A DNA stretch of 60,856 nt, filler included, from Hausera hauseri (GCA_046269625.1; 10 parts of 10 records of this genome joined end to end with filler, not necessarily neighbours in it); one strand, 5' to 3'; shown: positions 17,404 through 60,856, counted from the whole stretch's first letter. Notes: generated by a model from the sequence alone, not told the origin. A program made the numbers and translations.

Positions 17404-17582
17404 ATATCTTTGATTTAACGTGTTGTATTTTGTGTATTAATAAATNNNNNNNNNNNNNNNNNNNNNNNNNNNNNNNNNNNNNNNNNNNNTTAATTAATTA
17501 ANNNNNNNNNNNNNNNNNNNNNNNNNNNNNNNNNNNNNNNNNNNNTTCGGATTGCGTTAACAACAATCCAGAGAAACCATCG

Positions 17583-19047
17583 TTATCTTGGATTGTCAGT
17601 ATCCAAGATGTTTGCTATGCGTCGCATATCTATCCTTACCCAATTAGTTCTGCGACGCTTTTGTAAGTAGGGAACTAATTTTATGGTAAGTGCTATACTT
17701 ATGGCTATTATTACGGGAGTTATGGTACATATTAGTATTATTTCTAACCGTGAATGTGAATACGTCGTACGTGGGGGTCTTAAGGTTGTGATTACCGTAA
17801 TAATGACCTTTCTTTGGTATGATTTTATTTTCACTTCATTTTTAGTCACGGCCGTTAAGACCTTTGTGGATATTACCTTGTTATTGTCATTATAAAGTTG
17901 CAATACTATTGTATATTTAGTATTTGGGGTCAATGTTGCGCAAGTCACAATTAAATCATCCGGTTTTATAATTCCTCTAGCAACGACTGCGTCTCGTATT
18001 TTACATGTAAACTTTACTTTAAAAAGTCAAGGTCTGGCTTTACAGATATTATCAGGGAAGTTGAGGCCATGATAATTGTAACATTTTCTCATATGGAATG
18101 TTTTTGTCGGTAATATGATGCATATAGCTTAATTAGAACAGTCATCTCCCTTTCATTACTTTGTTAATCAACGAGGAGTGCACAGATGATGCCGTAACAT
18201 TCTTTGGTTATTCATCATATTCGACTTTATTTAGATATTGCACGTACATGGTCGGTCCTTTTCTTTTTATGCTACTCAAAAATTTTCCATATTCTTTCCG
18301 AGATAGCTTATAGTCGACAATTTATATCTTGCCTCTATCTATGTTGCAGTAGACTTGCTGTTGCGCCTCAGTTATATGGCATTTCCTTGAGATACCTTGT
18401 CGATTTTGCGTTTCTTTAATGGGTATTGTTAACCAGCGGATATATTCTAATTCTATTTTACTTACTATTTTGATGTAACTTCTTCCGCTTTTAAATCCAA
18501 TTGATTTTGCCACCAATTGGGTAACTATTATTTTATCCAATAATGTTTCGTTCATCTGATGTCTTGAAGGAATCAAAATATACCTACTGGTTTTGCTGTA
18601 TTGACTTTGATAATAGTCGCCATTTTTCTTTATAAGGGTGAGATATACTTGGTGGGGACCCGATTCTTCTACTAGACAATGTGTTTCGTTTATCCCTGGA
18701 CGAAGTAGACAATCGTAGTTACGTTCATAAGGGTTTCTTTTATCATGCCATGTTATTTCTTGTATTCCTATCTTATATTCGATTGGTATTCGTCTAGTAG
18801 TATACCAGATTACACTTTTCTTTCCATTATTGGAGTATGTTATTTGGTATCGCAAACTTTTTAGTAATAAATTTTCATTTATTCCTGTTGCATGTCGTAT
18901 TTTAGCACGTTCGATTTCTTGGTTCCTCATTTGGCTCAGGGCTTTTGGTATTAATATAAGAAGTACTAATATGAGATTATTTCTTAAACTAACAACTCCA
19001 CGTATTGGCTTCTTCTTTACCACCTTTTCTCTAATATTTCTTACCAT
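17583..19047 (-). pseudogene. Env-position ORF of a Gypsy element: signal peptide, FN3-like ectodomain, TM helix and short tail (disrupted)
   Basis: N-terminal LILVLLILIPKALSQ; beta-rich Cys-containing segments; FN3 signature CATLTPNTKYTIVLQLYN; Thr/Pro stalk; TM IILICTITPVIIAISIALTI followed by KRRR. Confidence 0.6.
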
Positions 19048-19068
19048 TTCTTGTTCATCTCCACGCAG

Positions 19069-21879
19069 CTAACTTTCTTTAGCTGCTGGCTTACATCTGT
19101 TAAAGTGAACTTTAAAAATTACATTATTCTTTCTTAGACAGACATTGGGTAAGTCCACTTTTTCCACTTCATATAGTTTTTTGTATGGTCTATCTAACTT
19201 GGATGTTTTACCTTTCTTACTTAACGGCATGTACAACATCATCTTATCTCCCACTTTAATCATTGGTTGCCTAGTCTTTTTATCATAATACTTTATACCC
19301 TAATTTGAGACGTTCCTGCATTAATTTTTTGTATTCTTCTATTTCCATTAACTGTGATATGGGCCGCACATTAAAATCCAAATCAGTTGATAGTCTGCCA
19401 TCTCTTAAATACATTGTATAAAAAGGTGCTTCTTTAGTAGCTTCATGTACAGACGTTCGATTCACAAAGACACACGCATTAATGCACTCATTTCAGTCGT
19501 ATTGTCTTACATTAACTACCGTTTGTAGCTTTTCTTTCAGATCTCCTATGTATCTTTCAACCATTCCATTGTTCTCTGGTTGTCCCGGAGTGGACCGCAG
19601 CTTCAATATCTTCATAATATCGTATATTGCTTGCATTACATTACCGGTTAAGTTAGATGCTTTGTCTGTTAACAGAATTCGAGGAGCTCTATAATAAAAT
19701 ATAATGTTTTCTACGAATTTTTCGGCTATCGTTTCAGCTTTCATATTTGGCATGGGCAGTGTGACGACCCATCGGGTGAAATAATAAACACCAGGATATA
19801 TTTATTCCCGTTTCCTGTTAATGGTAAGGGTCCTGTTATATCCATTGCAGTAATTCAAGTGGGGCAGGTGGGTTGTTTCATACTTTCAGGGGAGCTTTAA
19901 ATTTGGATCCTGTATGCTTTCGCGTGGCACAGAGTTTGCAACTGCTACAACAATCTTGGACATCCCTTACTATAGTAGACCAGAAATATTTCCTTTTCAA
20001 TTTGTTTATCGTTTTCTTCACTGATTGATATCCGCCCAGCAATCCATCATGGTATTGTGTCAGTAGTACTGCTCTATTCTTTGGAATCACTAGTGCGGGT
20101 CCATTTTGGTGAATATAATATAAAAATTCATCTTCTTATTTGTAAGCATCGCTAAATCTGGTTAAATGGCGAGCCAATTCTCTATCCTTTGGTATAATCT
20201 TATGTTGTATATAATCTCTAATGGCTTTTATTTCCTCATCTTCTCATTGATTCTCTTTTATCTTTTCTATAGATCCGCCCATGCTGCATACGGCTGCGAT
20301 TACCTCTTTCTTTTCCGTTGGTTTCTGTAGAATTATTGATAAGTAATCCGCATTCGATTGCGTGTACCAGGTTTGTACTGAAAATCCAATGTATAAGGTT
20401 GTAGTTTTAAAGCCCATTGTAGTAATCTACTGTTGGGGTTTTCGTGTTTCTTCAGCCATTGCAATGGTCGATGGTCTGTATAAAATATTAACGGTTTATT
20501 CTCACTAATATATGGTGAGAATACTTCTAGTGCGAATATTACCGCTAGCAACTTCTTCTCAATAACGGCGTACTTTTGATGTTTGTTCAATTTTCTCGAC
20601 ACGTAGGTAACTGTATGTTCTTTACCATCTTCACCCTTTTGTGATAACACCGCTCCTACTCCATAATCACTTGCATCCATTGCTAGTTTGAACGGTGTGG
20701 TCATATCGGGGTAAATTAGAATAGGGGCGCTCATTAATCTTTCTTTCATATCCTCGAACGACTTCTGGCAGTCACTTGTCCATATTACCTTTTCTAAATC
20801 TTCGCTTAACGTCTCGTATAGGAGTTTGGCTATTTTACTAAAATTCTTTATGAATCTTCGGTAGTAATTTGCGAGCCCTAAATATCGGCGTAACTCATTA
20901 ACGGTCGTGGGTTTTGGAAAATTTTTAATTTTATTTAATAGTCTGTCACGAGATTTTACACCGTACCTATCCACTCGATGTCTTAGTAAGTCAACTTCAG
21001 TTTTAGCAAATGAGTATTTCTTCGGGTTTATTTTTAAATCCATTACTTCACATCTATCAAAGAGGTCTTGTAAGTCCTTCAAATGATTGAAATCCGATGA
21101 TGCTATGATTACGTCATTAATATACACCATAACATTGGGTGCGTCTAAAAGTAGTAATTCTGTCCCTCTTTGAAACGTTGGAGGTCCATTTTTTAATCCA
21201 AATAGCATTCTATTAAACTCCCATAATCCTACGCCTATCGAAAAGGCTGTTTTCGGTTTATCTTTTTCCTTTAGTTGTATTTGCCAGTATCCTTTTTGTA
21301 GGTGAATTGTGGTTGAATATGGTTGAGCCATGCAACTTATCTAATATTTCGTCAATCTTTGGCAACGGATACGTGTCTGTTTCCGTTATTTCATTTAACG
21401 CTGTATAGTCTATGCAGACTCTCATAGCTCTATCTTTCTTTTTCACCATCCTTACTGGAGCCGTCCATGGGGAGCAGCTAGGGCGTATAATTTTGTTTTC
21501 CCTCATTTCATTTATAATTTTACGAGGTTCTTCCTTTTAGTCGTATGCCAATCTGTATGGTCGCTTCTTTATAGGTTTGCTTTGGCCCTACTTTAACTTG
21601 ATCACATGTTGTATTACGTTCATCTTTTCTAAATCACAATCATTTTGAGCGAATCGATTATTGTTTTTCTCTAACAACTAGATGAACATTTTTCTTCTTT
21701 CATTAGATATATTACAATTTCGTAATTTCTCTTCCTAATTAATGCGAGTAGTTTTCTTCTTTTTATTTTTATTTAGTTTTCCTTTCAATTTCTCCGTCAT
21801 TAGTTTCTCGATCTCATCTACTTCTGAGATTACCGAATTAATCGTTTCTTTTGGTACTTCTTCGGCATCTATTGCTTGC
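19069..21879 (-). mobile_element. pol: Ty3/Gypsy pol (RT-RNase H-integrase), decayed
   Basis: IIRPSCSPWTAPV, CIDY..LN, YPLPKID, KGYWQI, FGLKNGPPTFQR, YIND (mutated YxDD), DASDYGVGAVLSQ, TDHRPL, integrase zinc-finger region, LTDK..N, PENNGMVER, GPY/F-like region, VHFNRCK. Confidence 0.95.
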
Positions 21880-21995
21880 AGTAGTAGGATGTGAGTACTT
21901 CGAGCCACTACCCCCCCCGGAAGGAAAGAAGCCAATGGGAAGAGGACACGTCATCGGGTGAAGGAAAACTGGCGAATGGGAAGAGGACACGTCAT
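21880..21995 (+). mobile_element. Polinton-type terminus inserted into the Gypsy pol
   Basis: Starts AGTAGTAGGATG, followed by CCCCCCCCGG, GCCAAT and two ACACGTCAT. It is the reverse-complement homolog of 28522-28639 and cuts the pol reading frame. Confidence 0.75.
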
Positions 21996-22095
21996 NNNNN
22001 NNNNNNNNNNNNNNNNNNNNNNNNNNNNNNNNNNNNNNNTTAATTAATTAANNNNNNNNNNNNNNNNNNNNNNNNNNNNNNNNNNNNNNNNNNNN

Positions 22096-23095
22096 GTCGC
22101 CAAATGCGTTTGAACTGCTCCAGAATTTAAATTTTATTTCCTCGTAGAAAGAAAGGGAACCTGAACGAAATATTTTTGATAACCTCTATCTACGCGATCT
22201 CAAATGTGTGATCTGCTATGTAGACGTAGCACAAATTATTCTTTTGCCATGCGGTAATTTAAAAACGTGTGAGAAATGTTCAAATCAAACAGTGAATTGC
22301 CCAGTTTGCAGAAGTCATATAGAAAGAAGAATAACACTTTCAGTTCCCACAAGTGAGTAATGAAAACAAATCTATTGGAAATGAACATTGAATAACAATT
22401 AGTATATGTCTGGTTTGAATAAATAAATGTTTATTAGTTGTGTATATGAATTTATAGTAACAAAATTGAATAAATTTTTTATAGAATTACTGGACAGTAG
22501 CAGTATGACTTCGACCAATCTTAACAATTGGACAACGCAATTACTAACAATAAGGTATCAACCACCCAAAATAGTTCACGAATGGTACAGACTATATAAC
22601 AACCCTATAGTTATTAAGGTAATGGAATTAGAATACTCCAAATACTTGACAATGCTTGCTATGAAAATAAATGAAAAGACCGAATTTGACGTATTACCGT
22701 CAGTGATTAACAACATATATCAAATGCAATTGATGGATAACCGACATTACCAGAGAGTCCAACACTTAACTTTAATATCAAAAGAAAAAGAGTAGGAAGT
22801 GGAAAAAAGATGTACAGATATTAGCCGTACAAATTGGACTTGTTTAGTTTGTAGAAAAAATCAATTTAATACGATATATTTACCATGTGGGTACATTATT
22901 CATTGTAAAATCTGTGTTCCTAAAGATTCTATGTTATCAAAATGTACTGTGTGTGAGTTACTCATAGAAGAAACCTGTACTATATATAATAAAATGGATA
23001 GTAATTTAGTCTTTCTTAATAACAATGGCGCAGGGACATCAGTTAAATACCCTATCCCGAGGACGACTGGCACAAAATCAATTAAGAGCGATTAA
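22096..23095 (+). pseudogene. Two IAP-type RING fingers in one reading frame (in-frame stops)
   Basis: CVICYVDVAQIILLPCGNLKTCEKCSNQTVNCPVCRSHI (from 22205) and CLVCRKNQFNTIYLPCGYIIHCKICVPKDSMLSKCTVCELLI. Segments starting 22199, 22427 and 22799 share a frame. Confidence 0.8.
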
Positions 23096-23198
23096 CGAAG
23101 TCGATTCGAACAAAGGAAATATTAGTTCTGCTAATAATTCAGATGCTTTAAGTACAGAATGAGCTCCAGAATCATTACTTGACATCGATTCACTACAA

Positions 23199-25621
23199 TT
23201 GTTTCCCGTTCCAGTACAACATCAGTGTATACGAGGAGTTAATGGGCGACGAAGGCCACCCCGAGGGCAATATCGCAATGCACCTAATTCACGACAATTA
23301 ACACAGAGAATAGTTAACCAGGAATTAAAATTCCGAACACGTTACAAAGTACATCAAGTAAACTTAAACGAATTAAGAATAAGACAAAATCAGACGGACA
23401 ATAGTACTCGACAGTAATAAAGGAAATACAGGATATACCTTGACAAAGAGGAGACGATACAACGGAGACAAGTGTCATGAATAATTATATAAGACTAGAT
23501 ACAGTCGAAGAAAGAACTACACGAATAGATCAAAAAGTGAATGATAGTAATATAAACTTAAACGAATTTGAGGAGAAAAATACTCAACTAGAACAAAACA
23601 TAAATGCCAATTCCAGACAAATATATAATTTACGACAACAGACCATTGACCATATAACAGCAATATATAGAAATAAGAAACAAATTGATAATAATGAGAG
23701 GCAAATAAATGAAAGGTTAAATGAAATACAAAATCATGTAACAATTATGGTATGCGAACAGGAACAAATACAAATAGAAAACAGTCACACCAGAAGCCAA
23801 ACATACACCTTAGCCCAAGGTATAAATCAATTAAATGAACGTCTTGAACAAGTAAGGGCAGAAGAAAGGTGACTCAACGGCAAGAAGCAGTACAATAACC
23901 AGAGTTTTCAACAGAACTAAGTTCTATATCTTGTAAAATCTCTAACACCGACAGCAACAACATGGAGCCGCCAAGAAATAACCGAGATTCATTGGCGCAC
24001 CAAGATGAGCGCAATTGTGCTCAAAATAATAACACCGGTTATGGCCTATTAAACTTTAACGAAAGGAAAAGAGAAAAAAAATACCAAATGCTTCCTCGCC
24101 TCCAACCATATGAAGGGCGAGTATCAGACCAGGAAGACTTTTAGATAAATACGATTCACTAGCAACAGCTATGTATTGGGATGACGCAAAGAAAATACCT
24201 CTTTTACTAGTACGTGTAAACAATTATCTGAGAATGGCAATAACGCGCCTACCTAGACGAATAGGTGAAACTTTGGCACAATACCGAAAAAAGATTTTAC
24301 AAAATCAGCAGGTTAACATACAGGAAAACCGATATTTAAAATTCCAGAATTGTAAACAAAAACCAAGTGAAGAAGTATTGACATATATTAATATATTTAA
24401 AACAGCAATGAATAGATACTTTGGCCTGAATGCACAGGCTTTTAGTGCCATGATCATAAAACATTTTTTACTTGGACTTTTACCACCTTTACGAGACGAA
24501 TTCAAGTTCCACAAAGAAAACAATATTAACGAGTTGATAGATTATACCCGACGAATGGCAACCCGAATTAATGAAACACCCGTGTGGACTAATCAAACAC
24601 AAATTGCAGCAGTGGCTACGACACCATTATTGGTAAGGCCAAATGTACCAAATCGCAGTAACTCACCATGGAGAGACTCTTCGAGAGACCAAAGCCCTAA
24701 TCGACAAGGCAATAATACATCACAACGAAGCAACACTCCAGACAGAGGAAGTTATAACCAATCAGCTAGAAACTACAATAGTAACCAAAGGGATACGCCA
24801 TATCAAAGAAGTAGAGGATATTATGATAATTGACAACGAAATAATCCAAGATACGGTAGATCACGAGATTACTCAAGAGACAGAAATGATAATAGAAATC
24901 GACTTCCCAGTAGAAAAAGGTACACTAACGATCGAAACTCCAATCGCTATGATAATAGGAATAATCAAGTAAGTTCACATCATAAACACGATATCCAACT
25001 AATCGATTGCAAGGATCAGGATCTAACTACTCCAATGATAGGCGAAGCGAAAATCGCGAGAGGTTTAGAAGAGATGACAGTCAAGAACGATATGGTAATC
25101 TAAAAAGAAATAATAGTAGAGAAAGAGATAATAGACTTAGCCATAGCACAGATAGATATAATTCTGGAACTGACAATAGAAATAGATACAATTATACAAG
25201 ATCTGGAAACTATGACAGAAGAAGTGACTATACTCCACCTAGACGAGAATCGGATAGATACAAGAGGAATCCTAGTCCATATCCTCAAAGAGACCGAAAT
25301 CAGACCCCCTTTTCCAGAACAAATAATAATGATGATAGATATACACGACCGCCGGAATATAGTTTCAGACAAAATGACTCACCGATAAACAGAAACACTT
25401 CCCCATCCAAACATAATAGAAGTACGATATTAGATTATTCTAAATATTTCAATGAAAGAAAATTGGACTCAACAATACCATTTTATAGTAGTTCCACAAA
25501 GGAGAAAGGAAACTCTTCAGATAATAGAAAAGGCAAGAGCGACGAAAGGAGCGCCTCACTCCGTCGTTCAGTAACTTTCAATGGCAAATCCAATAGTAGA
25601 ACATTATCAAACCATACCTAA
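23199..25621 (+). mobile_element. gag: Gypsy-type gag: coiled coil, capsid domain and long R/S/N/D-rich tail (frameshifted)
   Basis: Heptad-rich 23477-23872; PRLQPYEGR..DQEDF/LDKYDSLATAMYWDDAKK; MHR-like KQKPSEEVLTYINIF; FLLGLLPPLR; long RS/RD low-complexity tail. Confidence 0.8.
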
Positions 25622-25769
25622 GCCATAAGTTAACATATCCATTGTAGAAAAACCCTTCATAACAAGAAATTACTTGGATAAAGCAGAGCGAAAGGTACCA
25701 GACATCTAAAACAATACACTCCCATATATGTTATGGCCAGAAACTAAAGAAATCCAAAACTTACTTTAA

Positions 25770-27040
25770 ACTTTTGTAGAAGTAGAAAAAACCATTGAGG
25801 ATAAACAGGAATCAGAAATCAATCGAATAAGAATAGAAAACATTGAAGGTGATTTGATAGTCGAATCAGAAAATGTATACTTAGAAAAGGAGAAATGTTA
25901 CGAAAACCGTAGACAACTACTCTGTGGAAAACTTATAGTCGGAATAGATTTGCCATGGTTATTTAAACAAATACAATTAAAGCAAACAGATATCTTCGGT
26001 ACGTTTAATGTAGATCGGAATGATCTACTTACCAAATGATCAATGGAAAAGAGAAGGTACATTATCACAACAATTAAGCAATCTACGACAAGAATACAAA
26101 ATTAAGCTTAATTGTCAGGGATCTCTATATTATATTTTCCCAAGCAGGCCCTTGTTTAAGGATGATAGACATCTCCAACAAGAGATAACATGTAATATTA
26201 CTCTGATCTCAGAAGAAACATTACAGCGTATGGATATAGATATAATTCAAAACTGGGATAAAATATTCGATAACAGGAAATCTAACCGAATAGAGTCTGT
26301 AGATATTGCCGAATAAGGATCAATTTGTATGAAAGGTATCGATAAAATGTATCTAAAAAGACTGATATTCAGATTAAAAGAAACGACCCGCCATGTGCTA
26401 TAATTACTAATCAAAGAGAAGCACGGTTACGAATTGGTAACAAAACAGTAATAGTTTCAAAAGAAACTATGATGTTTCCTAATTAGTCCGATATACCTAA
26501 TACAGTTGCTTAAGGAAACACCAGTGTTAACCGTGGATGAACCCGTAACACAGGATAGAGAAATAATACTTATAGGTAGATGCATAACCAAAGGAGACCA
26601 GAAAGGACATACTCAAATCACTGCCAAAAATCTAGAAGGAAAAACAATTCTTAATATTCATGTATATGCAAACATACCAGACACTACAAAGTACACCGAA
26701 TACAGAAGACGATCCAATCTTCAGCGACAGGAGTCGGTAAGTGAATTCATGAATAAATATTTACCAGGAAAGGTAATCATCGGACGCCAGTTGACAGAGC
26801 TATTAAATGCATTGAGAATAAATCCAGTAAATTTAACCGCCATCTACGATCTGGAACAGACTAACAGAACCTACAAATGTTTGGACCTATACCATGGTCA
26901 TAACTCAGAAATTATGGCACAAAGATATCTAGACGAATACTTAAAGACAGTACGAGTAGAATACAATATACCATGGGTAATAGAAAGCCAGAAAACACTA
27001 CGAATAGTCCTTCCAGTAATACGAAAACTTAATAAAACTG
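25770..27040 (+). pseudogene. Two tandem degenerate DEDDh (REX4/ISG20-like) exonuclease folds
   Basis: Unit 1: FVEVE...INRIRIENIEGDLIV...LLCGKLIVGIDL. Unit 2: TQITAKNLEGKTILNIHV...YLPGKVIIGRQL..LLNALRI...IYDL. Both resemble the REX4 pattern RVSIVN..G....D...LLKGRILVGH.L; catalytic acids are mostly lost. Confidence 0.45.
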
Positions 27041-28295
27041 ATAAAGCAAGAACAATCCCAGTAATTGAACCAATTGCTCAAAGACATCCGTAGATGGATT
27101 CTGATGGATATTCACATGAGCTCGTCAGAACAAGATTAACTGGAGAATGGATAGAACCTTATAAGAATGGATTAGTCCCACCACCTCCTCAATTAAAGGT
27201 TCCACCTCAACGACCTAAGTTACTCGAAAGTATTTGGGATTCAATACACCCAAGCACTTCTAAAAAGGAACCACAAGTAATTTATGAAGACGAAGTGTTT
27301 GAAATTTTAGACGATGAACTTATACCTACACCGAATGTGATCCAATATCCTGAAGCTACACTACCACCAATCGAAAACCCAAAAATCATTCCCGGACATG
27401 AATATTTCACCAGGTTCCATAGTATATGACGAACCTTCAGAGTTAGTAACCGAAATAATTACAGCTAAGTTGAATATAACTGATTCAGCACCTAATAAAA
27501 TATGGAATGCTTTACGACAATACGAGTCACTACAATTAATTAGTCGAATAGAATGTGCGCCATTACTCTTACCACTAACAAAAGATGTTGTATTCTGCTT
27601 TTCAGCCGAAAGAAAGTAATTAAAAACTCTAGGAAGAGACCTAAAACCAAAATACTGAAGAAAACAACCATATATTATAAGCATAGAAATTAAAACCAAT
27701 ACGGGGGAACAAGTAATCGAAGTAACAGCAGGAATGTTTATTAAATTTACAGACCTCCGAAGGAAAGTGTTGGGTGAATTAAATCTCAAAACTAATATAA
27801 TAGCAAAACCGGTGTTTATGGCAGATTAGCCGTTGAGAATGATTATGTTGTAGATTATGGACTCCTTACCGGAAAGATTCATCAGATTACTATGGAATTT
27901 GGCACCAAGAAAAAGGGGAAAGACGACGAAAATGCGATTTAACTCAATAAATGATGATGAAGAAAATCCCGAAGAAGAAAAACCAGAAAGACAAAGAAAG
28001 AAAAGATCTTTGTCGCGAAAACGTAANNNNNNNNNNNNNNNNNNNNNNNNNNNNNNNNNNNNNNNNNNNNTTAATTAATTAANNNNNNNNNNNNNNNNNN
28101 NNNNNNNNNNNNNNNNNNNNNNNNNNCGAGTCCAATTTGAATGGATTCCAGAAGAAACACCAATGGAAAAGAGAATTCGACATCTAACGTATTTGTCATA
28201 TGATTTGTCTTCCATTGTGACAAAACTGAATCAGCTTATTTCATCAATCACCATTTGGATAAATAAAGATTTGTAAATGTTATGTAAATAAATTT

Positions 28296-28639
28296 TTATT
28301 TCTCATTAATACCGCTTTGTTGCAGGATACGACTTTCTTCTAGGGTAGGACTTTCTTCCAGGGTAGGACTTTCTTTCAGGGTAGGACTTTGTTCCGGGGT
28401 GGGAATAGTGAAACCCAGTTGGAGCCAGATTGCTTTGTTCCAAGGTGGGAATAGTAAAACCCAGTTGGAGCCACCTTCGTTTCTCATTGGTCACTTTTCC
28501 TTACACTTTTTCCTTCCCCCCAATGACGTGTCCTCTTACCATTGGCCACTTTCCTTTCCCCCGATGACGTGTTCACCTCCTATTGGCTTCCTTCCTTCCC
28601 CGGGGGGCGGTTGGTGCGAACTCATCCCTTCCTACTACT
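28296..28639 (-). mobile_element. Polinton-type terminal inverted repeat with internal tandem repeats (end at 28639)
   Basis: Ends ...CCTACTACT. Contains 18-bp repeats GGGTAGGACTTTCTTCCA (3-4 copies), two GGTGGGAATAGT.AAACCCAGTTGGAGCCA, two TGACGTG and ATTGG boxes. Homologous to 21880-21995. Confidence 0.75.
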
Positions 28640-28842
28640 GTTATTATTGTTTGATTATGATTATTATATTATGTTTTGTTATTTTTATTATTATTTTATT
28701 GTTATTATTTTCTTATTACTTTTTTATATTTATTATTTTTATTATTATTGTTAATTTAATAATTTGCTACTTTATTAATTTCTTAGTTTTATTATGATTT
28801 TTTATATTTATTGCTTTTATTATTAATCTTAAATTATTTTTC
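28640..28842. repeat. Degenerate (TTA)n low-complexity tract
   Basis: Direct reading of the sequence. Confidence 0.9.
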
Positions 28843-29076
28843 ATAGGAGAGCTCTGTTGTGCCCTTTTAATTGTATTTAAGCTAATTGTCTTACGTGTAG
28901 TTGCGTTGGGGATGATTTTGCAGGTGTTGCATAAGTGTTGTCTGCTTTATGTTGATTTTTATTTTCCGTCTAAGGATGATTGTGTAGTCTTTTCTCTAAT
29001 TATAGTATGTATGTTTGTTTAAGGTATATATGCTCTTTTTTGTATCCGCTTTGGATCGATATTATTCGAAATCGAC

Positions 29077-29860: not shown

Positions 29861-30031
29861 ATCGATTACCATCGCTCCCAGGCAGTGGGACAGAACATAC
29901 ATTTTTACCCTACTCCAATTTCCCAATAACGACTTTCTTGCCAAAGGAAAATCAAAGATGCAATTCATATGTGTATAGCACATGTACAATACACATCGCT
30001 CAGAATTGCCACAGTACCATGAAGAGCTATC

Positions 30032-32247: not shown

Positions 32248-32347
32248 NNNNNNNNNNNNNNNNNNNNNNNNNNNNNNNNNNNNNNNNNNNNTTAATTAAT
32301 TAANNNNNNNNNNNNNNNNNNNNNNNNNNNNNNNNNNNNNNNNNNNN

Positions 32348-44966: not shown

Positions 44967-45207
44967 AATATTGTCAGAACATTGTGTACCGAATCACCCA
45001 CCGCTAATTTAATCTAGCGTTGATTTCATGATGTCATTATATACAGCAATTAAAAATATGACGCTGACACCTGTTTCTTGATCACTCAGATATTTATTTG
45101 ATCAGATTTATTTGACCTTTGTCTTTCACTGATTAGGAAATATTACCGATACCGTCGTAGAATAATAATTGGTGTTGTATAGTCTGGGTTGAGGGTATCC
45201 AGTATTT

Positions 45208-51314: not shown

Positions 51315-51899
51315 ATGTCTGACGACCGGAGTGGTTTTGATGTTGTAGTCCATGGAATCGTTGAATGCGCGGAATGTCTTGAAGCCGATATGATATATTG
51401 CCGGACGTTCATCTCAAAAGGGCCAGATTGGTCCGTGACATCACCGGCCGCCAGTGGTGAGCGTGTCAGCAACGTTGAAATAATTACGCAACTGTCCGAA
51501 AGGCTGCCTGGACCTGTTGCAAAGTTTACCTGGAACGCCCCGTTTGAATGTTGCTTTCGATCTACGAACATTTCTGGATGGCCCCAACTAGCGATACAGC
51601 TGAATACTATCAACAGCGTTGGGAAGGATATTCTTGTAGGGTACGCGCGGTGTCATATACCAACACATTCAGGGCATTTTACACGCGAACTTACACTTAT
51701 GCAGCCCCTATGTAGCACACCGCAACAGCGGCTGTTTAGTTCGTTGTTTGGAACTGGCCCACCAGAGATACGAGATATTAACTTTCTGTGTTCAGCTGGG
51801 GAGAGGGCAATGATCCATGCCAAGCGACTACCTGGTTATATTCGGGTCACATTCAACGTAATTGTTGATGGTCAAACAGTGCTTGGGTATGACGTGTGA
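51315..51899 (+). CDS. B9D1: B9 domain protein 1 (ciliary transition zone), intronless
   Basis: G.VE.A...D..YC....GPDW, TWN.PF...F.STN..GWPQ, G.D...GY...H.P, terminal LGYD; intact 194 aa. Confidence 0.88.
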   Translation: MSDDRSGFDVVVHGIVECAECLEADMIYCRTFISKGPDWSVTSPAASGERVSNVEIITQLSERLPGPVAKFTWNAPFECCFRSTNISGWPQLAIQLNTINSVGKDILVGYARCHIPTHSGHFTRELTLMQPLCSTPQQRLFSSLFGTGPPEIRDINFLCSAGERAMIHAKRLPGYIRVTFNVIVDGQTVLGYDV

Positions 51900-52528
51900 A
51901 GTGATGCGTATGAAGCCTCATCTACTAATAGATGAATCCTTCATTCCATGCATACATATGCATGATAACACTGTTGTTGCAACAGTCAGCTAGTAGGCTG
52001 CATAGAGCAATCTATATGTATGTATATATAATTTGCGAGAAGATAGTAACGTCAATGTTTATATAGCATCAAGTGCTACTGATTTACAAAAATGTTTGTT
52101 CATACACTTACTTGTAACCAATGCTGAAGTACATGTGCTTTGCTGGATGTGATGTGAGCAGTGTACTCACAGTGACGTTTATAGAGCGACAGTTGTTGCC
52201 GCGCCTGTCTGTGTTTACTGTTCTTCTAGTTCCCTGTCCATTATCACTTTCTGTGCGCGTACACATACCCTTTGTCTTGTTTCGTGTACTGCCTTTTTCT
52301 TTTTTTCTGCTCGATTCATTTTAGTGATAGGAACACATTGTACTGTCTCGATCAAAGGAAAAGGAGAAGGGGGATTCTACGAGAATCAGTGGCTGTCAAG
52401 GGAGTAAGAAGGTTTGGCTAGAAGAATAGATATACAACAGACTTTTGTTTGGTTCCAGAGGATAACGTATTGAGTGAAGCTGACTCACAAGGAATCAGTG
52501 AAGCCTACTTCTCTGTAACGACGAGGTC

Positions 52529-55315
52529 ATGTTCCGTAATTCTTGCGGATGTTTCAGTCGCTGCGGTCTCACGGCGAAGCGATCAATCGCCGCGACGCTC
52601 AGTGAACTTCACTCAGTTGTGGCGCTGCTCAGCATAATTTTTATTGCTTCTGTGACTATCTGTTGCGTTTCGATTGTCGTTGTCAGTGTCGTAAACTTGT
52701 CGGATGAAATTTCGATTTGTTCCAAGTTGGGATCACAATTGTCTTTTACGGGGGCTTGAGCAACTGCTAGCACACATCTCTCGAAACATATGCACTGTAG
52801 TTTAGCTTTACCTACCACTGTGCAGAGAAGCGCGTTGCCGAATTTCATTGGATTGTATGGGCAAGCGCGGGCGGACCCGTTCGCTGCATGGATAAAGTAT
52901 TTATCGAACGTTGTTGTTGGTGGAGGGAGTAAAGTGGAGTCCGCTGGAGTTGTGTTTGCAGATAACACTGTCGTTTTGTCAAGAGAAATCCAAGGTCTTT
53001 TCATACGTACTGTTGATCCATACAACGGAAGCACATCGTCAAATCCCGTGTTGCCGCCGATGGTCCATACTGTTGCATACAACAAAACTACTACTCAGGT
53101 GATCAAAGAGGTGTGGGTCCGTCAGCCAGATTACTTCACGCAGTTAGATTGGTATAACACATCACCGAAGGCATACAATGCACCACCTGTAATTTCTAAT
53201 TTTGTTCTTACCGCGATGCAGAAGTTTCTTGTCGTCATCGTAGCGCCGATCTACATCAGTGGTTCATTTGCTGGTGTGGTGTTCACCCGTATTTTGCTTG
53301 CTTCCATCAGTTCCTTCCTCCAGACGTTGCCGTTGACCCCTAACTCCGTTGTTGTCTTACTAGATCTTGACAATTACCTATTGGCTTCTACTGTCAAGGG
53401 ATCAAGCGGAACGTTCACCACTGGTGAGCTGCCAATCCCTGCTGACGGGAAGCTGCCTGTTGGTTGTACAACGTATCCTTTTGCTTCTACACCCTTCATG
53501 AGATGCCGTCTGTACGGCGGCAACTACTCTGGGAGTGCTGTATTAAGAATGTTAGTCAATGAGTATGGGAGTTTCCTGAACAGGTCATTTACTGGTGTAG
53601 AGGGTATTCAAGTAACTTTGCGAGCGGTTTCGTATCAGGTTGCATTTGGGCCTCTCATCTTTAACCAAACCGCTTTGGGTCGTGCTGGTTACGCTCTGTG
53701 GAGAATTGTAACTATTATTCCTGACTCGGATATAACATCTGAAGCTCGTAATGGAGAGAATATTACCTACATCATTGCCGCAGTTGTTATTGTTCTCTGT
53801 GCAATCATATGTGTAGTCGCTGTTTTTCTACTTCTGCACCCATTGAACGTTCTTGCCGAGAGGATGTATTGCATTTCTTCAATGCGTGGTAGTGAACTTG
53901 TTTGCGCAAGGGATGAGAAGGCCGTAGAGAGTTGTGTTACTGAAGTGTGTATTATCCAAGAGGCATTGTATGTCTTAATTAAGCAAATAGCGTTTACGAG
54001 AGATTACTTATCCCCTGCACTTCTAGCCCAACTTGAAGCTGAGGATATAAATGACGATGAGGAAGTTCCTTGCAAAATAGAAGTAGTCGGGCCGAGTGAC
54101 TCAATGGCAGGGACCTATGGGAATATTCAAAGAGCCGATTCGATGCATTCGTTGATGACGTCATCGACAGTTCGATCTTCTTCGTCCAAGGTCTCAGTAT
54201 CTTCTGTGAACAAGAACACATGTACTATTTTGTTGTCTAACGACATTGCTACAAAGAACATAACTGTCGTTTCGCTCAATATAATAGGATTTGATCAAAT
54301 AATCGAAGATCATTCATCAGTGACGGAGAGGCCATACTGTGAACTTGTCGAATGTGTTGCGAAGGTTGCCAGAGACAATCGTGGAGTGTTGGACAGCTTT
54401 CATGGAGACAGATTTTTTCTGACATTTAATGCAGCGATATCTGCTGGTTCGCATGTTGCGTTGGCGGCCACCAGCGCGCTTAACATCATCTCTAACTCTG
54501 CAGTTCCAATGAGTTGTGGTATTGCGAGTGGCCCGGCACTTGTTGGCAATGCGGGGTGTGGTGGTCACAAACGTTTCTGCTGCTTCGGTGTGTGTTTTTC
54601 TCAGGCGACGATCCTAGAGCGACTGTGCAAACACTATCAAGGGACAACAATATTAGCGTCTGCGTCTGTACTACGTGATTGTGCAACGGTGTGTGAGTTT
54701 ATATATCAGGACGTCATCTGCCTACCCTGCAAGCCTTTTCTGAACAAAATCACTGGTGAACACGTATATTCGAAGGCAATGCCAATCGGTTCGTTGAAGT
54801 ATATGAAGTCCGCTGCCGCTGATGAGTGGATGTACGAGTTGGAGGCTTCGAATGACACTTTATTCGCACAATCAAATCAGGCCTTTATGCTTGTCATGGA
54901 AGGTAAGGTTGACGAAGGTGTTTCTAAATTGTCAGCGCTTCAAAGCGTTGGTCCGGAATTTGAGCAGTTGAAGGAATTTGTGACGCGAGTCGCTAAGACC
55001 TCCATTAATAATGCGGCCCCTACTAGAAAAGTAGGGTGTGAAGAGTCATTGTATTACATGGGTGTATTAGCGTCCGAGAAACATAGCTATTTCAATGATT
55101 GTATTCTATTTCATGGTGGATCGATATTTTTTCGCAAAGCAAGCACACGGATGATGTCAATGGGTAGTTCTCTGAGTCTCATGACAGATCTCGCTGCTAG
55201 GAAGTTTACTTTTGTTCATCAGCGTGTGGGGGTGAAGGAGTTGAACAAGAAAACTAGTTTTATGTCTCAAGCAAGTAGTGTGAGTGTTTCTTCCGCGATA
55301 CTGCATTTATTATAG
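52529..55315 (+). CDS. Receptor-type class III nucleotidyl cyclase (TM-Cache-like-TM-HAMP-like-cyclase) with one in-frame TGA at 52757
   Basis: ORFs starting 52529 and 52790 share a frame; Cache-like VAPIY.SG.FAGVV; second TM; cyclase motifs VVSLNIIGF, GVLDSFHGD, GIASG.ALVGN.G; EWMYEL. Confidence 0.8.
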
Positions 55316-56387
55316 TAGTAAGTGTTTACTGTTGTATGTAGCAATGCACCGCTATAGACTTCCATGCAAAACTTATTCGGTTCTGAGGGTTGGTGGGTTG
55401 GCGAGATATGTTGGCGATGTTATGATACAGTACAGGTACACTATGCACGTCAATGGAGCTCGTCATGGTTATACGCACTATACCTTTAGCCCACGTTGAC
55501 ATCGGTGAGGGAATGGTTGTTACTCGTTCTCGTGCAGATACGCTCTGTATGCGTCCTACTGTATGCGTAGCATGTTAACATATTATATTAGCGAGGGTGT
55601 TTGCATGCTATGAGAATCGACGGGTATGTGTATTTGTGTAGATATGTGTGCTCACGCACGGTTGTTAGTATGACGGTAGCCAAGTTTATTATTATTTGTC
55701 TTTGTTGTTGTTAGTAGGATCATTATCTACCGGGGAGCATGGTGTTTTTTGATTTACCCTGGCAGACTCATTCATTTTTTCTTATATCTGGTTCTGTTGC
55801 ATGAGTGAGTACGTAGGAATCATCTTCTATTTGCATCTCGCTTTTTCCTGTTGTGCACATTAGTATTTTTCGCTGAATTTTTTGCTTACATTGCACTCGA
55901 TTCTATTGCTACTTCGGTTATTTGAAGGTATTGGTAATAGCTTCCATACAAGTAGGGTTGTTATGCTTCTTTTTGTTTTCATACTTTCGCACCACGATTG
56001 TTTCACAGTTAACATTCCGATGTCACATCTCTTCGTCGTTTTGTGTGAATGGCTCTCGTGCCTCTAGTCTTGAGTATAGCAGTTGTGTATGTGAATATGT
56101 ATTTTTTTTCATTTGTACACTGTAGACGCATGTCTGCATTTTTCACCTGTCTTACCGTTTTCCCTATTGTAAGCTCTAACCACATTTCGTTTTTTTTTCT
56201 TCATGTTACAATATGTTAACTATTGTATATCAACAGATAGTTTAGCATTTCGACTGTGTCCAAAACATTCTATCTTGCTCACTTCAGGAGATCGCTGTGA
56301 TTCCTCTTAGGTCTCTTGTTGCTCCAGCACGCGGCAACGCAACAGTGTAAACGATTTGATCGTAGCTATCCGCTAGTCAAACATCTA

Positions 56388-56779
56388 ATGCCAAAAGCAA
56401 TTGTACTTCCTGTTATCTCAATCAGGCTTATTCTTGCTGCTTTTTCCATTGCGGCGGTTGTAATTTGTACTGTTTTGATTCTGTTTGTGAATGGCAGTTA
56501 TAACAACAGGACCTTTCAATTGTTTGCAACGTCCTTCACCGCGGAAACAACCACTGTCAGCCGTAGGCTTGTTAGGGAATATGCTGACCGGAGCATCAGC
56601 ACTTGTCTGGGGTTGCGCAATGCCGTGTAGAGAAGCGCGTTGCCGAATTTCATTGGATTGTATGGGCAAGCGCGGGCGGACCCGTTCGCTGCATGGATAA
56701 CATATTTATCGAACGTTGTTGTTGGTGGAGGGAGTAAAGTGGAGTCCGCTGGAGTTGTGTTTGCAGATAACACTGTCGT
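56388..56779 (+). pseudogene. Second tandem receptor cyclase, 5' part, with in-frame TAG at 56628
   Basis: N-terminal TM, then ~155 bp nearly identical to 52820-52975. Confidence 0.75.
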
Positions 56780-57914
56780 NNNNNNNNNNNNNNNNNNNNN
56801 NNNNNNNNNNNNNNNNNNNNNNNTTAATTAATTAANNNNNNNNNNNNNNNNNNNNNNNNNNNNNNNNNNNNNNNNNNNNCCTTAACTAAATTATCTAGTG
56901 AGAATACAATTTATAGCACGGTGCCGAAACTTTTGATAAGGAAGTACGCTAAAATCTTGAGGACTAAACCTGAGATAACGATGAAAGTAATGGTATTATT
57001 CCAGTGGATGGACGAAAAAGGAATGTGAATTAACTACATAATCCTATGTGAGGGACGTAAAAAAATGGTTATTAAATAACTGATGAACAAAAGAGTTAAA
57101 TTATAGATTTTACTTTAGAGGTAGAATACTCGACGACCTAGGACAATTAATATATGTCGGGATTATTTCCGACGAAACAAATTGAATATTAGCAACAATA
57201 GCTAACGAGCAGACAAAAGAAGAAGGCACACGTAAGGCAAGGTCACAGAAATGCGTGGGGCAGATTATGGGAGTCCGAGATGCTGCAATGTATTTCGAAT
57301 ATTTACAAACGGATGAAGACAACGAACAATACGATATAAATTTAGTACCACTGAGTGAGCTAACCGCTAAGGGCCCAAGGCCGAAACGCCCAGTTGGTAG
57401 GCCTAAGAAAACGCGAGAAGAGATGCACTATAATAGCAAATTAATTAGAGAACTGAGGCAGATGTCGATTCCGACTCTCAGTACAAACAGTGAGGAATTA
57501 AGTGAGTTAATAAAGAATTTGATACAAATTTTAAATTATTCGAGCCTTCTAAGTGATGTATTAGATGATAAAAAAGATAATATTTGATGCAACCAGAATG
57601 ATGCGAAGTTCACATTTTAAGTTATTAAAAAGTAACTTAGCCGATAAATCGGTAATCGAAAAAATCATGGTAGAAAACATCCACGAGGAATTTAGAAAAG
57701 TATTACAATACTTAGCTGTCAAAATAAACCCTAATCAAGAGAATGAAATCAATAGAGCTATAAGTTTAGTACGAAAAGCATCAAGGAGATTGCCCTGAGA
57801 AGTAAATTGGTCAAGATTGTTTGACAAAGAAGAAGACAGACAGAGCAGCAACAAACTCGACGATATGTTACATAATTTAATAACAGCGGATGTTAATTAT
57901 CGGAAAAATGAATC

Positions 57915-59750
57915 AAATTTGTTAATCAGCCTACTCACTTTGATGATGCTAATAAAACACAAGCTCTCTTACCGTTTACAACAGCGATAAGTTTAAGCTA
58001 GGGCAGAGATATTCCCTAATCGATCTGGAAGTGTGCGAAGATGTTAAACCGCACAAGTTGGAAACAAGACAGAAAGATTATTTCCTGTACCAACAACAAG
58101 AACTGATATCGTTAGATGGAATGGAATGCATGCTGGGACGATCGCGTAGCATTTTTCACTGTGGGTTAGTACATGGACATTCCTCCAAAATCAAGCCAAC
58201 AACTCCGCTAATCCCAATGAAACTAGAACGCCATCACTGCAAACAAACCAAGGAGACTGGAAGGGTACAATGGAACAGTATGCAATTAGAAATGCAACCA
58301 GGAAAGATAATTACAGCATATAAAGTAGTGGCCGGAAGGTTAGACATGCATAGCGGACACTGTTACAGAGCGGAATACGACACCGAAAAAGGATTACAAG
58401 CAAATGTGGTAGCCGTGGATTTCTACAAATCGGAGATGCGATCGCAGAAAGTAATGTTCCATAGTGCCACTAAGTTATACGCTGAGAATTAAAAATGTCA
58501 TTTACAAGACGGAACCTGTGCTTTTAGAAGTTCAGTTATAATATGGGAACTTCCCTTTGGAAGAAGCTGTAATTTTATTAAAATTAAAGAACTGAAGTTT
58601 AATGAAACTACGGGAAAACGATACGGGATAAATCGGAAACCAACTGGAGGACAGGCGAGGACGTATCAGAACATCCCACACCCACCATATTAATCTCGGA
58701 TCAACATAGACTGAAATTCATAAAAAAGAAGATGATTTCTTGTTCTGGTGTAATAATGTTCGCTACTAACTATGAGGCATTTTTTGTCGCAGAAACGGAA
58801 ATAAATGCAAAGACTTACAAATTAGAAACTCAGGATGTCTGAATCGAGGACTATCTAAAAAATAGAATCGATTACTTCTATTACAAAGAACAAGTCGGAA
58901 TAACGGTGTTATGTCACAAAATAATAATGAATGACTACAAATTAGATACCGAAATCATAAGGACGAAATTGGCCCTTATATATGCCAACCCAGAATTGGA
59001 CTCTCTAATAATTCATATGAGAGAGGGAATTTTCTGTCGGGTCACAAGCGAAGTACTGCTAACCTATGAATGCGAAAAGAGAGACGTACCCATCAACGTG
59101 GAAGAAAAACGTTTCATTCAGGAACTTCCTGTCATGTATCAAAATACTCCCAGGTTAGCTACACCATAAACGAGAGTGTTATTGGACAGTGCAACCCAAA
59201 CAACCATCCTTAGAGATTGTAAGGCGAGCTTAGGAGAGCCCATGTTTAGACGAAGTGAAACAGATTGTGTTAATTTGCCAAATAGAGGCATTACTGCCGC
59301 CCCAAATAAATTAACAGGAACAAATCTTGCGAAAGGAATTACGGGCGACAAATTTCAAGATACCTCGTCAAAAGGTTTATATAGGCCGAGGGAAATTAAA
59401 GCCTTTAGGCAATTCCTCTCTTTCCCGCGACAGCGAACACATGAATTAAACCGAGCCATGGCCTCAGTAGTAGACGATACACGATATCAGGCTAAGTGGA
59501 AATCTTTACTTGGCGTAAATCATTATCAACGAGTAACCACAGAAATACTCTATAAAATTTGGGGAAGATTTTTGATCTTCGAATAAGCTGCATCCGGATT
59601 TTTAGCGATATGTTTTTTGATACAAATGATTAAAGCAGTGATCCAAGCAGTAATTAATGGGTACGAAATATTTACATTGACTGGATTTTTATGTAAAATA
59701 CTGACTGTAATCATAACGCCTTTTGGAAAATTCTTAAAGGCATACGAAGA
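57915..59750 (+). pseudogene. Chuvirus-type (class III, gB-like) envelope glycoprotein, decayed
   Basis: Hydrophobic signal LLISLLTLMMLI; YSLIDLEVC; C....SR.IFHCG; C.....TG; AG....SGHC; C...DG.C......IIW; C......ELPV; W.RF..F...SGF....F..Q.IK......INGY.....GF. The pattern matches my recollection of chuvirus G and the G of Anakin Pao elements. Confidence 0.7.
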
Positions 59751-60258
59751 GGGTAATTGGAATTCAGACGTAGAACTTTATGTCGGGTATTATAATTGAA
59801 AACAAAAAAGAAGGCATATACTCTTGCGAAAGCGGACATTTATAAAACCTAATATGCGAAGAAACAATTCAGATGATTACAAGCCTAAGGGAGGAGAAGT
59901 ACTTTCGGCAGTCAACAAACATAAGGCGTACTCGGTTATTAAAACACCATTACCTATGCTACCTACTACGGCTCCAGTCTACGATGACTGTGACAAACGA
60001 TTACTGAGTTCATATCAGACAGAAATCTATAAAAGAACAATTAATGTAGAAGACCCTTATGAAGGAACAAAACGTTACGGGATCATACGGAAAATGAGTT
60101 ACCGACAATCCACAGTTGGTCCGAAAATGTTGTATTCTGCGAAAGAACCTCGGGATATAGAAACTAAATCAACGGTTTAGGATAATCCCATATTAAAAAC
60201 CTTCCAGAATACCGAACTACACACTAACAATCGAGAACCATTAATTAGTACACATGAA

Positions 60259-60744
60259 ATGGAAAAATTACACTTAGAAAACAATGAATTATATCCGAAC
60301 GAAAAATTAAGACAATTATTGGAGAATATAGTATCCTCCCCCAAAATCCGAATCAATGGACATAAAATATCGGCAACTAAACGTCCCAAAATAGCAAAAA
60401 ACTGTTTCGGAACAGTAATAGAAGGGAGACCCTTTGCCAAAATCATTATCAAAGATTGGGAAGTCTATGCCTTAATCGATACAGGATCCAAAATATCTTA
60501 CATTAAAAACGATTCTGTACCTAAATCTCTGAGGGGACAATTATATCCACCATCCATAAAAGATCCAGAAAGTACGGGAGCTTTTGGCCAAATGTCGAAA
60601 CCGATGTTTAAATGGAACCCAGAAGTTCAAATGGTTGGGCAGTTTTTCCATCACGAGTTTGCAGTTATGGAGCAATTAACTGACGACGTAGTTCTAGGAT
60701 GTGATCTACTGAAAATATTACCAATTATAGCAGTTGACTTATAA
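60259..60744 (+). mobile_element. Gypsy-type aspartic protease (retropepsin)
   Basis: PFAKIII...VYALIDTGSKISYI...FAVM......VVLGCDLL. Confidence 0.88.
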
Positions 60745-60856
60745 ATAGGTAATCTAATATAAATCAGGCCAAATAAAGGCGTAAAAAACACTAAGGATAG
60801 AAAATTTGAAGAGGTATGGATACTGTAAAAAAAACACATTTCATCGAGAACAGAAA

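Follow-up and report, generated by a model that had tools for sequence, protein, structure and literature searches.

Hausera hauseri contigs probably carry decayed Burro-like GAG-ENV-POL retroelements of at least two sister families

Introduction

Burro/GYPSM1, a giant gypsy element of planarians, encodes an in-frame Env between Gag and protease in a single ORF of ~4,900-5,100 aa and exceeds 30 kb with its LTRs (PMC6431247). Its N-terminal Gag has two to three CCHC knuckles, and the polyprotein also carries BIR and MATH domains and a BCL2-like domain directly before Env (PMC6431247). Errantiviruses with GAG-ENV-POL organization and an Env of the HSV/gB type have been reported from Platyhelminthes, Nematoda and Bryozoa (Chary and Hayashi, eLife, PMC13524379, also citing Sacco et al. 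2022), with nine flatworm entries of ~12-18 kb that all come from Schmidtea, Macrostomum or Prostheceraeus (PMC13524379). Two further systems share single features with the elements described here: Atlas virus, an endogenous element with an attachment-like and a fusion protein in one polyprotein (PMC9094657), and the bdelloid LTR elements Juno and Vesta, which carry a DEDDy exonuclease as ORF3 (PMC5408684). The main text of PMC13524379 names no partner protein that would guide class III (gB-like) retroelement fusogens to their target cells.

Here we analysed a window of 60,856 nucleotides from Hausera hauseri, in which ten contigs are joined by spacers. Three of these, C3 (17546-21995), C4 (22096-28026) and C10 (56880-60856), had been suggested to be pieces of one giant enveloped LTR retroelement family. 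We conclude that all three are remnants of decayed Burro-like Ty3/gypsy elements with GAG-ENV-POL organization, which probably represent two or more sister families: C4 is likely the front half of one, and C10 and C3 may come from the middle and end of a second. An entry mechanism proposed below would use two membrane proteins.

Results

Layout of intact relatives

Intact relatives encode, in one ORF of 2,774-4,844 aa, a chuvirus-like fusogen, protease, reverse transcriptase (RT), RNase H, integrase and then a protein with a signal, an FN3- or Ig-like domain and a transmembrane (TM) helix. This layout was seen in P0001, P0166, P0167, P0010, P0012, P0160 and P0219; the longest relatives span 3,761-4,844 aa, and in some Gag is part of the same ORF. 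Two intact single ORFs, P0166 and P0167, run Gag-accessory-fusogen-protease-RT-RNase H-integrase-FN3/TM. Together with P0024, in which an RS/Exo/Exo block is followed by a chu-like fusogen of its own, they agree with the original prediction as to element type and order of modules. For the lineage of C4, the position of Gag 5′ of Env is supported in two steps: Gag is on C4, and P0024 joins the post-Gag region to Env.

Probable front half of an element on C4

The modules expected on C4 (two RINGs, a coiled coil, Gag, an RS-type stretch and two DEDDh-like domains) are all there, on the plus strand, and a Pfam search of the contig found no protease. The first C3HC4 RING finger (22196..22327; PF13920, 2.3e-12) is followed by a cluster of stops, so that an upstream accessory ORF, a putative part of the element, probably ends there. 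After the second (22838..22972; PF13920, 6.7e-6) come a coiled coil 5′ of the capsid domain (23444..23872; a 142-aa open frame with weak coil-type Pfam matches), the Gag capsid domain (24141..24536; iE 5.1e-8 with a Gag profile from five Gag-Env-Pol relatives) and an R/S/N-rich low-complexity region in the nucleocapsid position (24640..25620; 48-53% identity to P0024). P0024 is collinear with C4 up to the last bases of the contig and 45-57% identical to it.

Frames of C4 gave no Pfam match to a CCHC knuckle, BIR or MATH, at a sensitivity lowered by decay. An anti-apoptotic module had also been expected, and searches of C3, C4 and C10 found neither BIR nor Bcl-2. A Bcl-2-like motif does occur in P0024, P0011 and P0016 (Pfam 0.00096 for P0016), at a position 5′ of which C4 ends. 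The call in P0024 rests on the motif in common with P0016, the stretch having no Pfam or PDB match of its own, and the helical region 5′ of the C10 fusogen had no Bcl-2 match.

The predicted pair of exonucleases stands as two DEDDh-like domains but not as active enzymes. Exo2 (26551..26970) has an Atlas RNase_T match (0.94, 186 shared features) and an iE of 0.0017 to the DEDDh profile of L001 and L002, two DNA relatives from a metagenome scan in which the catalytic residues are present. The four acids and the histidine of motifs I-III are absent from Exo2 and from intact P0024, and most of the acids are absent from Exo1 (25743..26100; 53% to P0024). Exo1 was called solely from its alignment with Exo2 (E 0.002) and from a 34-nt repeat (71%) at the ends of both, a pattern that makes it likely to be a tandem duplicate of Exo2. 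When longer proteins were searched with the C4 Exo region, P0024 was the only match among 2,287 candidates; an AlphaFold model of Exo2 built from a two-sequence alignment had a pLDDT of 32.

Fusogen and protease on C10

C10 (plus strand) also has the predicted content, that is, an AT-hook-like motif, a glycoprotein and a protease, then no RT (Pfam). The AT-hook-like GRP motif (57369..57410), recognized by sequence, has no Pfam match, and a similar motif lies 5′ of the fusogen in four relatives (P0010, P0013, P0160 and P0014). It is followed by a signal-like segment and a chuvirus/HSV-gB-type class III fusion glycoprotein (57916..59760; PF24664, 9.8e-32 and 3.4e-12) that is interrupted by frameshifts and stops and has a TM helix by hydropathy at 59599-59655. 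The aspartic protease (60424..60714; Pfam RVP, 5.8e-6; other protease score, 4e-5) best matches the RT-proximal protease of P0010 and P0166 but a post-integrase copy in P0160. An Env of the chuvirus/gB type therefore lies 5′ of protease (PF24664, then RVP), as in the errantiviruses, and protease follows the fusogen in nine of the ten best representative matches to C10. No Gag was found on C10, and the contig stops early in the protease-RT linker.

Pol and a second membrane protein on C3

The features of C3 lie on the minus strand, and the RT, RNase H, integrase and FN3-like/TM protein expected there were all found. The end of the protease-RT linker, RT, RNase H and integrase (19072..21878; Pfam; 41-66% to P0166 by segment) are in the order of Ty3/gypsy elements (Metaviridae) and contain frameshifts and stops. 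The two highest RT-RNase H identities of C3 are 48% and 47% (the other 33 of 35 being at most 44%), and these two are the only ones of the 35 with a fusogen. C3 fell among Gag-Env-Pol RTs with SH support of 0.983 but in 33 of 81 FastTree bootstraps. The 3′ side of integrase encodes a second membrane protein (17583..19068), with a signal-like segment (19005-18949) and a TM helix (17741-17685), both from hydropathy, and an ectodomain that contains an FN3-like domain (18044-17823; iE 2.4e-5 with the ectodomain profile of the relatives; profile match to fibronectin at E 0.0009). At the 5′ end of the C3 copy, a dispersed repeat unrelated to the element (21879..21995, no strand assigned) is 80.5% identical over 118 nt to 28523-28640 on C5.

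All seven of the relatives examined that extend that far have a hydrophobic segment 3′ of integrase. The ectodomain is FN3-like in some, Ig in P0001 and neither in P0029. Four of six relatives with complete tails (P0160, P0166, P0167 and P0219, not P0010 or P0012) have the PDZ-binding pattern T-x-V at the C-terminus; the tail of C3 is cut off by the contig end, and its own terminus is missing. The post-integrase FN3 protein may act in attachment, a role that we put forward tentatively. It could instead be a scaffold-docking or adhesion protein of the producer cell that directs budding or blocks superinfection, a role that we hold just as tentatively and that would suit both the T-x-V ends and the variable ectodomain. 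Against this second role, the shared ORF yields the protein and the fusogen in a one-to-one ratio, and fusion proteins of class III commonly depend on a distinct binding protein, as established for herpes gB/gD.

A shared module probably separates C4 from C10

The three contigs had been described as carrying non-overlapping, complementary modules. This description does not hold: the 3′ end of C4 and the 5′ end of C10 carry the same helix-bundle/ubiquitin-like module, which had been overlooked. On C4, a four-helix bundle and a ubiquitin-like domain (27428..27906, plus strand) are 57% identical to P0024, and the profile matches the ubiquilin UBL at E 0.009; a model of the P0024 part of the module (pLDDT 84) has the ubiquitin fold (Z 12.4, rmsd 1.8, 81 aligned). 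The bundle, which may be TFIIS-N/LEDGF-like, had no Pfam or PDB match, the fold search yielding ubiquitin-domain matches. On C10, the end of the bundle and the ubiquitin-like domain (56888..57203, plus strand) correspond to positions 54-157 of 160 in a leave-out profile, with 7.0 and 8.1 bits in two frames. The higher score was reached by none of 300 shuffles, and the signal was weak when the whole window was searched (iE 0.04-0.7). The ubiquitin-like domain lies before Env, as in Burro.

Aligned directly, the C4 and C10 modules have no detectable similarity (184 of 200 shuffles reached the score of the best alignment). The same module with unrelated sequence on both contigs indicates that these are likely separate sister families. 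The fusogens point the same way. That of C10 is at most ~31% identical to any relative found and 22.9% identical to that of P0024, compared with 56.9% between the C4 and P0024 modules, whereas all 15 intact pairs show higher identity in the fusogen than in the module. The C10 and P0024 fusogens were sisters in 1 of 100 bootstraps (FastTree), and the P0024 sequence beyond the end of C4 had no match to the 5′ end of C10 (score reached by 59 of 200 shuffles).

Placing C4, C10 and C3 in one family is thus probably wrong, given that homologous modules make C4 and C10 overlap and that the two differ in fusogen lineage. One family could be kept if it had gained a further copy of the helix/ubiquitin-like module in tandem and had taken its fusogen from a different lineage. 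The module order of the intact relatives would agree with this, as would a second, weak UBL copy in P0219 (one of the six relatives having the module) and the comparable decay of the contigs (see below). We consider it very improbable, as it requires a duplication diverged past recognition plus an env swap, and P0024 has one module and a fusogen of its own.

Assignment of C3

Stop densities (4.1 per kb in C4, 2.5 in C3 and 2.3 in C10) are not distinguishable (p 0.22), in line with the similar decay noted at the outset, and all three copies are dead. An A-rich coding strand, taken earlier as a sign that the three belong together, is also found in the distant relatives L001 and L002 (A 0.40) and so marks the clade, not the family.

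With C4 set apart as one family, we lean towards C10 and C3 belonging to one other. The protease on C10 and the RT on C3, although on separate contigs, are collinear with the relatives, with ~70 linker residues missing between the two contigs, as estimated from weak alignments. Base composition is near-identical in C10 and C3, C3 being nearer to C10 than to C4. Both are multi-copy, with 12,315 (C10) and 10,510 (C3) variant contigs at 80-100% in run X1, which may come from the same source as the window. Their variant-contig spectra are similar (500/1702/4877/5236 and 473/1580/4206/4251, respectively), in a read comparison that covered these two contigs and had no control.

It is rather unlikely that the three contigs represent three separate families of the same clade in a genome that holds many. 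Both A-richness and layout are clade-wide, no meaningful overlap of C3, C4 and C10 appeared among the matches listed (blastn and tblastx, contigs C2-C10), and no contig (C2-C10) or read (run X1) was found to span C10-C3 or C4-C10. Against this, C10 and C3 meet within the same linker and agree in base composition and divergence spectrum. Long repeats that could be LTRs were found neither within nor between the three contigs, all of which are internal pieces, and scans of viral contigs and genome contigs, as well as a first metagenome scan, found no DNA relatives.

Less likely still, C3 is the Pol and tail of the C4 family, with C10 separate. P0024 is without Pol, so C3 could belong to the family of C4 or to a third, and its RT distances to relatives fit either lineage. 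C4 has a relative at ~50%, and C3 has no RT-RNase H match above 48% among 1,146 candidates of 1,401-4,000 aa, which argues weakly against joining C3 to C4, as does its composition. We therefore retain two or more sister families, with C10 and C3 as possible parts of the same one.

Discussion

In intact relatives, one long ORF holds Gag, the helix bundle and ubiquitin-like domain, a signal peptide, a TM-anchored class III fusogen, at least one protease, RT, RNase H, integrase, a second signal, an FN3-/Ig-like domain and a TM helix; the lineage of C4 adds, as further regulatory modules, a Bcl-2-like motif and two DEDDh domains that are catalytically dead. Such a polyprotein would pass repeatedly across the ER membrane, where signal peptidase, together with the protease of the element, would release Gag, the fusogen, Pol and a surface protein of type I topology. 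Both membrane proteins would be incorporated into budding particles, in which the fusogen would drive entry and the FN3 protein would serve as its attachment or membrane-targeting partner. RNA binding is a possible role for the dead nucleases, and the ubiquitin-like and RING modules may engage host ubiquitin pathways. More speculatively, the clade as a whole may be retrovirus-like, combining an entry system of two proteins made as a single polyprotein (a class III fusogen before Pol and, after integrase, a captured FN3/Ig attachment protein that is swapped between lineages like a receptor-binding module) with host-control cargo (dead nucleases, ubiquitin-like, RING and Bcl-2-like modules), in a source genome with at least two deeply diverged, high-copy families.

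The second membrane protein kept 3′ of integrase in diverged intact relatives offers a concrete partner candidate for the fusogen. Sister families can give rise to contigs that look complementary; with a conserved marker module and an intact relative, such families can be distinguished without long reads. The helix-bundle/ubiquitin-like module and the tandem pseudo-nucleases add to the host-control cargo known from Burro. Neither a post-integrase FN3/Ig or FN3/TM protein nor this cargo set was found in the literature searched, and figures and supplements of PMC13524379, Grohme 2018 and Sacco 2022 may describe them.

The placement of Env before Pol is real but less new than the original prediction implied, being already known from Burro (PMC6431247) and flatworm errantiviruses. 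The elements resemble GAG-ENV-POL errantiviruses in their Ty3/gypsy Pol, in a chuvirus/gB-like Env 5′ of Pol and in being multi-copy, and the Schmidtea mediterranea Env row in supplement file 3 (PMC13524379) shares, on visual inspection, its N-terminal motif pattern with P0010 and P0166. The main text of that study mentions no fibronectin, immunoglobulin, exonuclease, RING or accessory ORFs (PMC13524379). Shared with Burro (PMC6431247) are a single giant ORF with an in-frame Env between Gag and protease, a Ubi/SUMO-like and a putative BCL2-like module 5′ of Env, a coiled coil, a RING-type motif and upstream accessory ORFs, as well as ankyrins in the relatives P0160, L001 and L002. By contrast, the BIR, MATH and CCHC knuckle of Burro were not detected in C4, and the review does not list tandem pseudo-DEDDh domains or a post-integrase FN3/TM protein for Burro (PMC6431247). 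As in Juno and Vesta, a DEDD-superfamily exonuclease is found on a Ty3/gypsy element; theirs is a DEDDy enzyme in a separate ORF 3′ of pol with its catalytic residues kept (PMC5408684). The lineage of C4 instead has two copies between Gag and Env, without the catalytic acids.

Atlas virus is presumably a BEL/Pao element. It too has separate attachment-like and fusion proteins in one polyprotein (PMC9094657). Its class II Gn/Gc pair lies together at the C-terminus, whereas in the elements described here Pol is situated between a class III fusogen and an FN3/Ig protein.

Domains and abundance of the three contigs

The window is made of ten contigs with artificial spacers between them, three of which, C4 (22096-28026), C10 (56880-60856) and C3 (17546-21995), had been predicted to be pieces, in that order, of one giant enveloped LTR retroelement family. 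In single-frame Pfam searches, C4 gave two RING domains, C10 a class III fusion glycoprotein (fusogen) of Monjiviricetes (chuvirus) type and a retroviral protease (PR), and C3, on its minus strand, reverse transcriptase (RT), RNase H (RH) and integrase (IN). Stops and frameshifts interrupt all three alike, with 4.1, 2.5 and 2.3 stops per kb of aligned segments in C4, C3 and C10, respectively (rates indistinguishable, p 0.22). Among the matches listed, no meaningful DNA overlap was found between them; C3 ends in a 118-base repeat of which C5 has another copy. C3 and C10, the contigs covered by a comparison with sequencing run X1 (possibly the same source as the window), are abundant old repeat families in that run, matching 10,510 and 12,315 contigs, respectively, with nearly equal identity spreads.

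Intact relatives place Env before Pol

The fusogen-protease frame of C10 retrieved P0001, a 2,774-aa ORF reading Gag-fusogen-PR-RT-RH-IN-Ig, and 247 matches in a representative library, from which 17 long or top matches were picked and scanned for domains. The protease lies 3' of the fusogen in 9 of the 10 best representative matches. Among 35 matches to the C3 RT-RH, a fusogen was found only in the two most identical, P0166 (48%; 3,771-aa ORF, cluster of 21 members) and P0167 (47%; 3,761 aa, 7 members). Both read, in order, Gag, an N/R-rich stretch, a helix bundle, a ubiquitin-like domain (UBL), a signal, the fusogen and two proteases, followed by RT, RH, IN, a third protease-like copy, a hydrophobic segment, FN3-like repeats and a transmembrane segment (TM). 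The predicted module order is borne out by intact single ORFs with Env before Pol and a post-integrase cassette.

Six segments of the ectodomain, taken from four relatives, gave a profile that matched C3 at 18044-17823 (iE 2.4e-5). With C3 included, a four-sequence profile matched fibronectin better than any other PDB entry (E 0.0009), and L001, a metagenomic DNA relative, gave a Pfam Fn3 match (E 0.002). Hydrophobic segments precede the fusogen and follow the integrase in intact relatives.

Several aspartic-protease-like copies, one of them after the integrase, occur per polyprotein in P0160, P0014, P0010 and P0166; P0160 (4,844 aa) has ankyrins and at least six such copies. The complete fusogen-Pol-membrane polyprotein P0012 (HBK71150.1) is assigned to a Flavobacteriaceae MAG, in which it is likely a eukaryotic contaminant.

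C4 and C10 share a module, very probably in separate lineages

The part of C4 from 24735 to the contig end aligns collinearly (45-57% identity) with P0024, a protein of 1,963 aa free of interruptions, which then continues into an acidic linker, a Bcl-2-like motif, a signal and its own chu-like fusogen. When the region before the fusogen was aligned for six relatives together with C4, the alignment matched ubiquilin UBL domains (E 0.009), and the model of this module (pLDDT 84) matched ubiquitin (Z 12.4, rmsd 1.8, 81 aligned). A profile without C4's lineage found P0024 (iE 3.5e-11) and gave two collinear matches, of 7.0 and 8.1 bits, in the first 330 bases of C10; 8.1 bits was reached in 0 of 300 shuffles. 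Judged by sequence, C4 and C10 each carry a predicted helix-bundle/ubiquitin-like module. Three points speak against this: the C10 matches were weak in a whole-window search (iE 0.04-0.7), C4 scored 4.6 bits, reached in 4 of 300 shuffles, and P0219 has another, weak UBL copy. The four-helix bundle at 27428-27643 may resemble TFIIS-N/LEDGF integrase-binding domains; no database support for this likeness was found.

The modules of C4 and C10 were not directly similar to each other (184 of 200 shuffles scored at least as well), nor did the P0024 continuation match the 5' end of C10 (59 of 200 shuffles reached the score). In all 15 intact pairs compared, which are not independent, the fusogen was conserved better than the module, whereas module identity between C4 and P0024 is 56.9% against a fusogen identity of 22.9% between C10 and P0024, a large gap. 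The C10 and P0024 fusogens were sisters in 1 of 100 bootstraps. C4 and C10 very probably belong to different families; in place of the predicted succession, they show a shared module of dissimilar sequence and, probably, distinct fusogen lineages.

The pairing of C10 with C3

In P0010 and P0166, the protease copy nearest to RT is the best match to that of C10, and in P0160 a post-integrase copy outscores the RT-proximal one. Weak alignments to P0166 place the end of C10 and the start of C3 in the protease-RT linker, with ~70 residues between them. Base composition (A/C/G/T) is nearly identical in C10 (0.383/0.171/0.198/0.247) and C3 (0.390/0.166/0.196/0.247) and is 0.412/0.175/0.173/0.240 in C4, but A-richness is just as high in distant relatives. 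The C3 RT clusters with Env-before-Pol elements, away from C7 and C8 (SH 0.983), a grouping recovered in only 33 of 81 bootstraps. Because P0024 lacks Pol, C3 could instead come from the family of C4 or from a third one; on balance we lean slightly towards C10 and C3 as one family.

Accessory cargo

The second Exo of C4 is similar to RNase_T proteins (Atlas 0.94) and to intact DEDDh domains (iE 0.0017) that L001 and L002, another metagenomic relative, encode 3' of the polyprotein (Pfam 6.5e-9 and 1.5e-11). Its catalytic acids are missing, a loss not due to decay because they are also missing in intact P0024. Exo1 looks like a tandem duplicate. Both RINGs precede the apparent Gag frame, RING1 being followed by stops, and lie outside the range of every intact relative; they are candidate members of the element, and accessory ORFs upstream are described for Burro (PMC6431247). 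Because C3, C4 and C10 had no detectable BIR or Bcl-2 domain, the proposed anti-apoptotic modules can be kept at most for C4's lineage, through P0024.

Accessory ORFs follow the polyprotein in the P0166 relatives L001 (6861-9920) and L002 (7268-11517): one encodes a DEDDh exonuclease whose motifs are intact, another is exonuclease-like and missing motif I by eye, and L002 also has one of helix-plus-ubiquitin-like type. Cargo of the same types therefore also exists downstream as separate genes. In another lineage, P0029 has a DEDD-like domain by eye (residues 108-307; no Pfam match) immediately before the fusogen signal peptide.

Other contents of the window

In C9 (50000-56779) lie a B9-C2 gene free of introns (Pfam 8e-34) and a gene for a membrane protein of 851 aa, which has a weak Cache match and may resemble kinetoplastid receptor cyclases; a 155-nt stretch is duplicated (98%; 52820-52974 and 56625-56779). 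The contig looks like protist, not animal host. C6 (33372-37797), C7 (39416-39817) and C8 (44622-44993) hold a second, related gypsy element set flanked by host-gene pieces: an MCM OB domain and an RNA polymerase Rpb1 fragment (C6), an ARID domain (C7) and a weak Mak10 match (C8). Decayed protein-primed DNA polymerase B pieces, which we take to be Polinton-like, lie in C2 (11567-16748) and C5 (30548-32247; 68% identity between them). C1 (1-8533) is an 8.5-kb low-complexity, purine-rich contig (53% A, 6% T).

Predicted roles and comparison with known elements

Ty3/gypsy elements replicate via Gag particles, RT and integrase, and membrane fusion is the function of class III fusogens. The fusogen and an equal amount of a second type I protein would be freed by signal peptidase together with the protease of the element. 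This second protein may attach particles to cells; alternatively, it may steer budding via the C-terminal T-x-V motif found in 4 of 6 complete tails. The dead nucleases may bind RNA, and the UBL and RING modules may act on ubiquitin pathways; these processing, attachment and cargo roles are all predictions. Overall, the observation behind the original prediction was confirmed in part and its interpretation supported in part.

The post-integrase FN3/Ig membrane protein, tandem pseudo-DEDDh domains before Env and the helix-bundle/UBL unit were all absent from the available text of PMC6431247, PMC13524379, PMC5408684 and PMC9094657 and from the results of literature searches; Grohme 2018, Sacco 2022 and further supplements may describe them. 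These papers describe a Gn/Gc pair (PMC9094657), DEDDy ORFs in rotifer LTR elements (PMC5408684), elements of GAG-ENV-POL order and gB type in flatworms, nematodes and bryozoans (PMC13524379) and, for Burro, an Env in frame between Gag and Pol, preceded by Ubi/SUMO-like and BCL2-like modules (PMC6431247).
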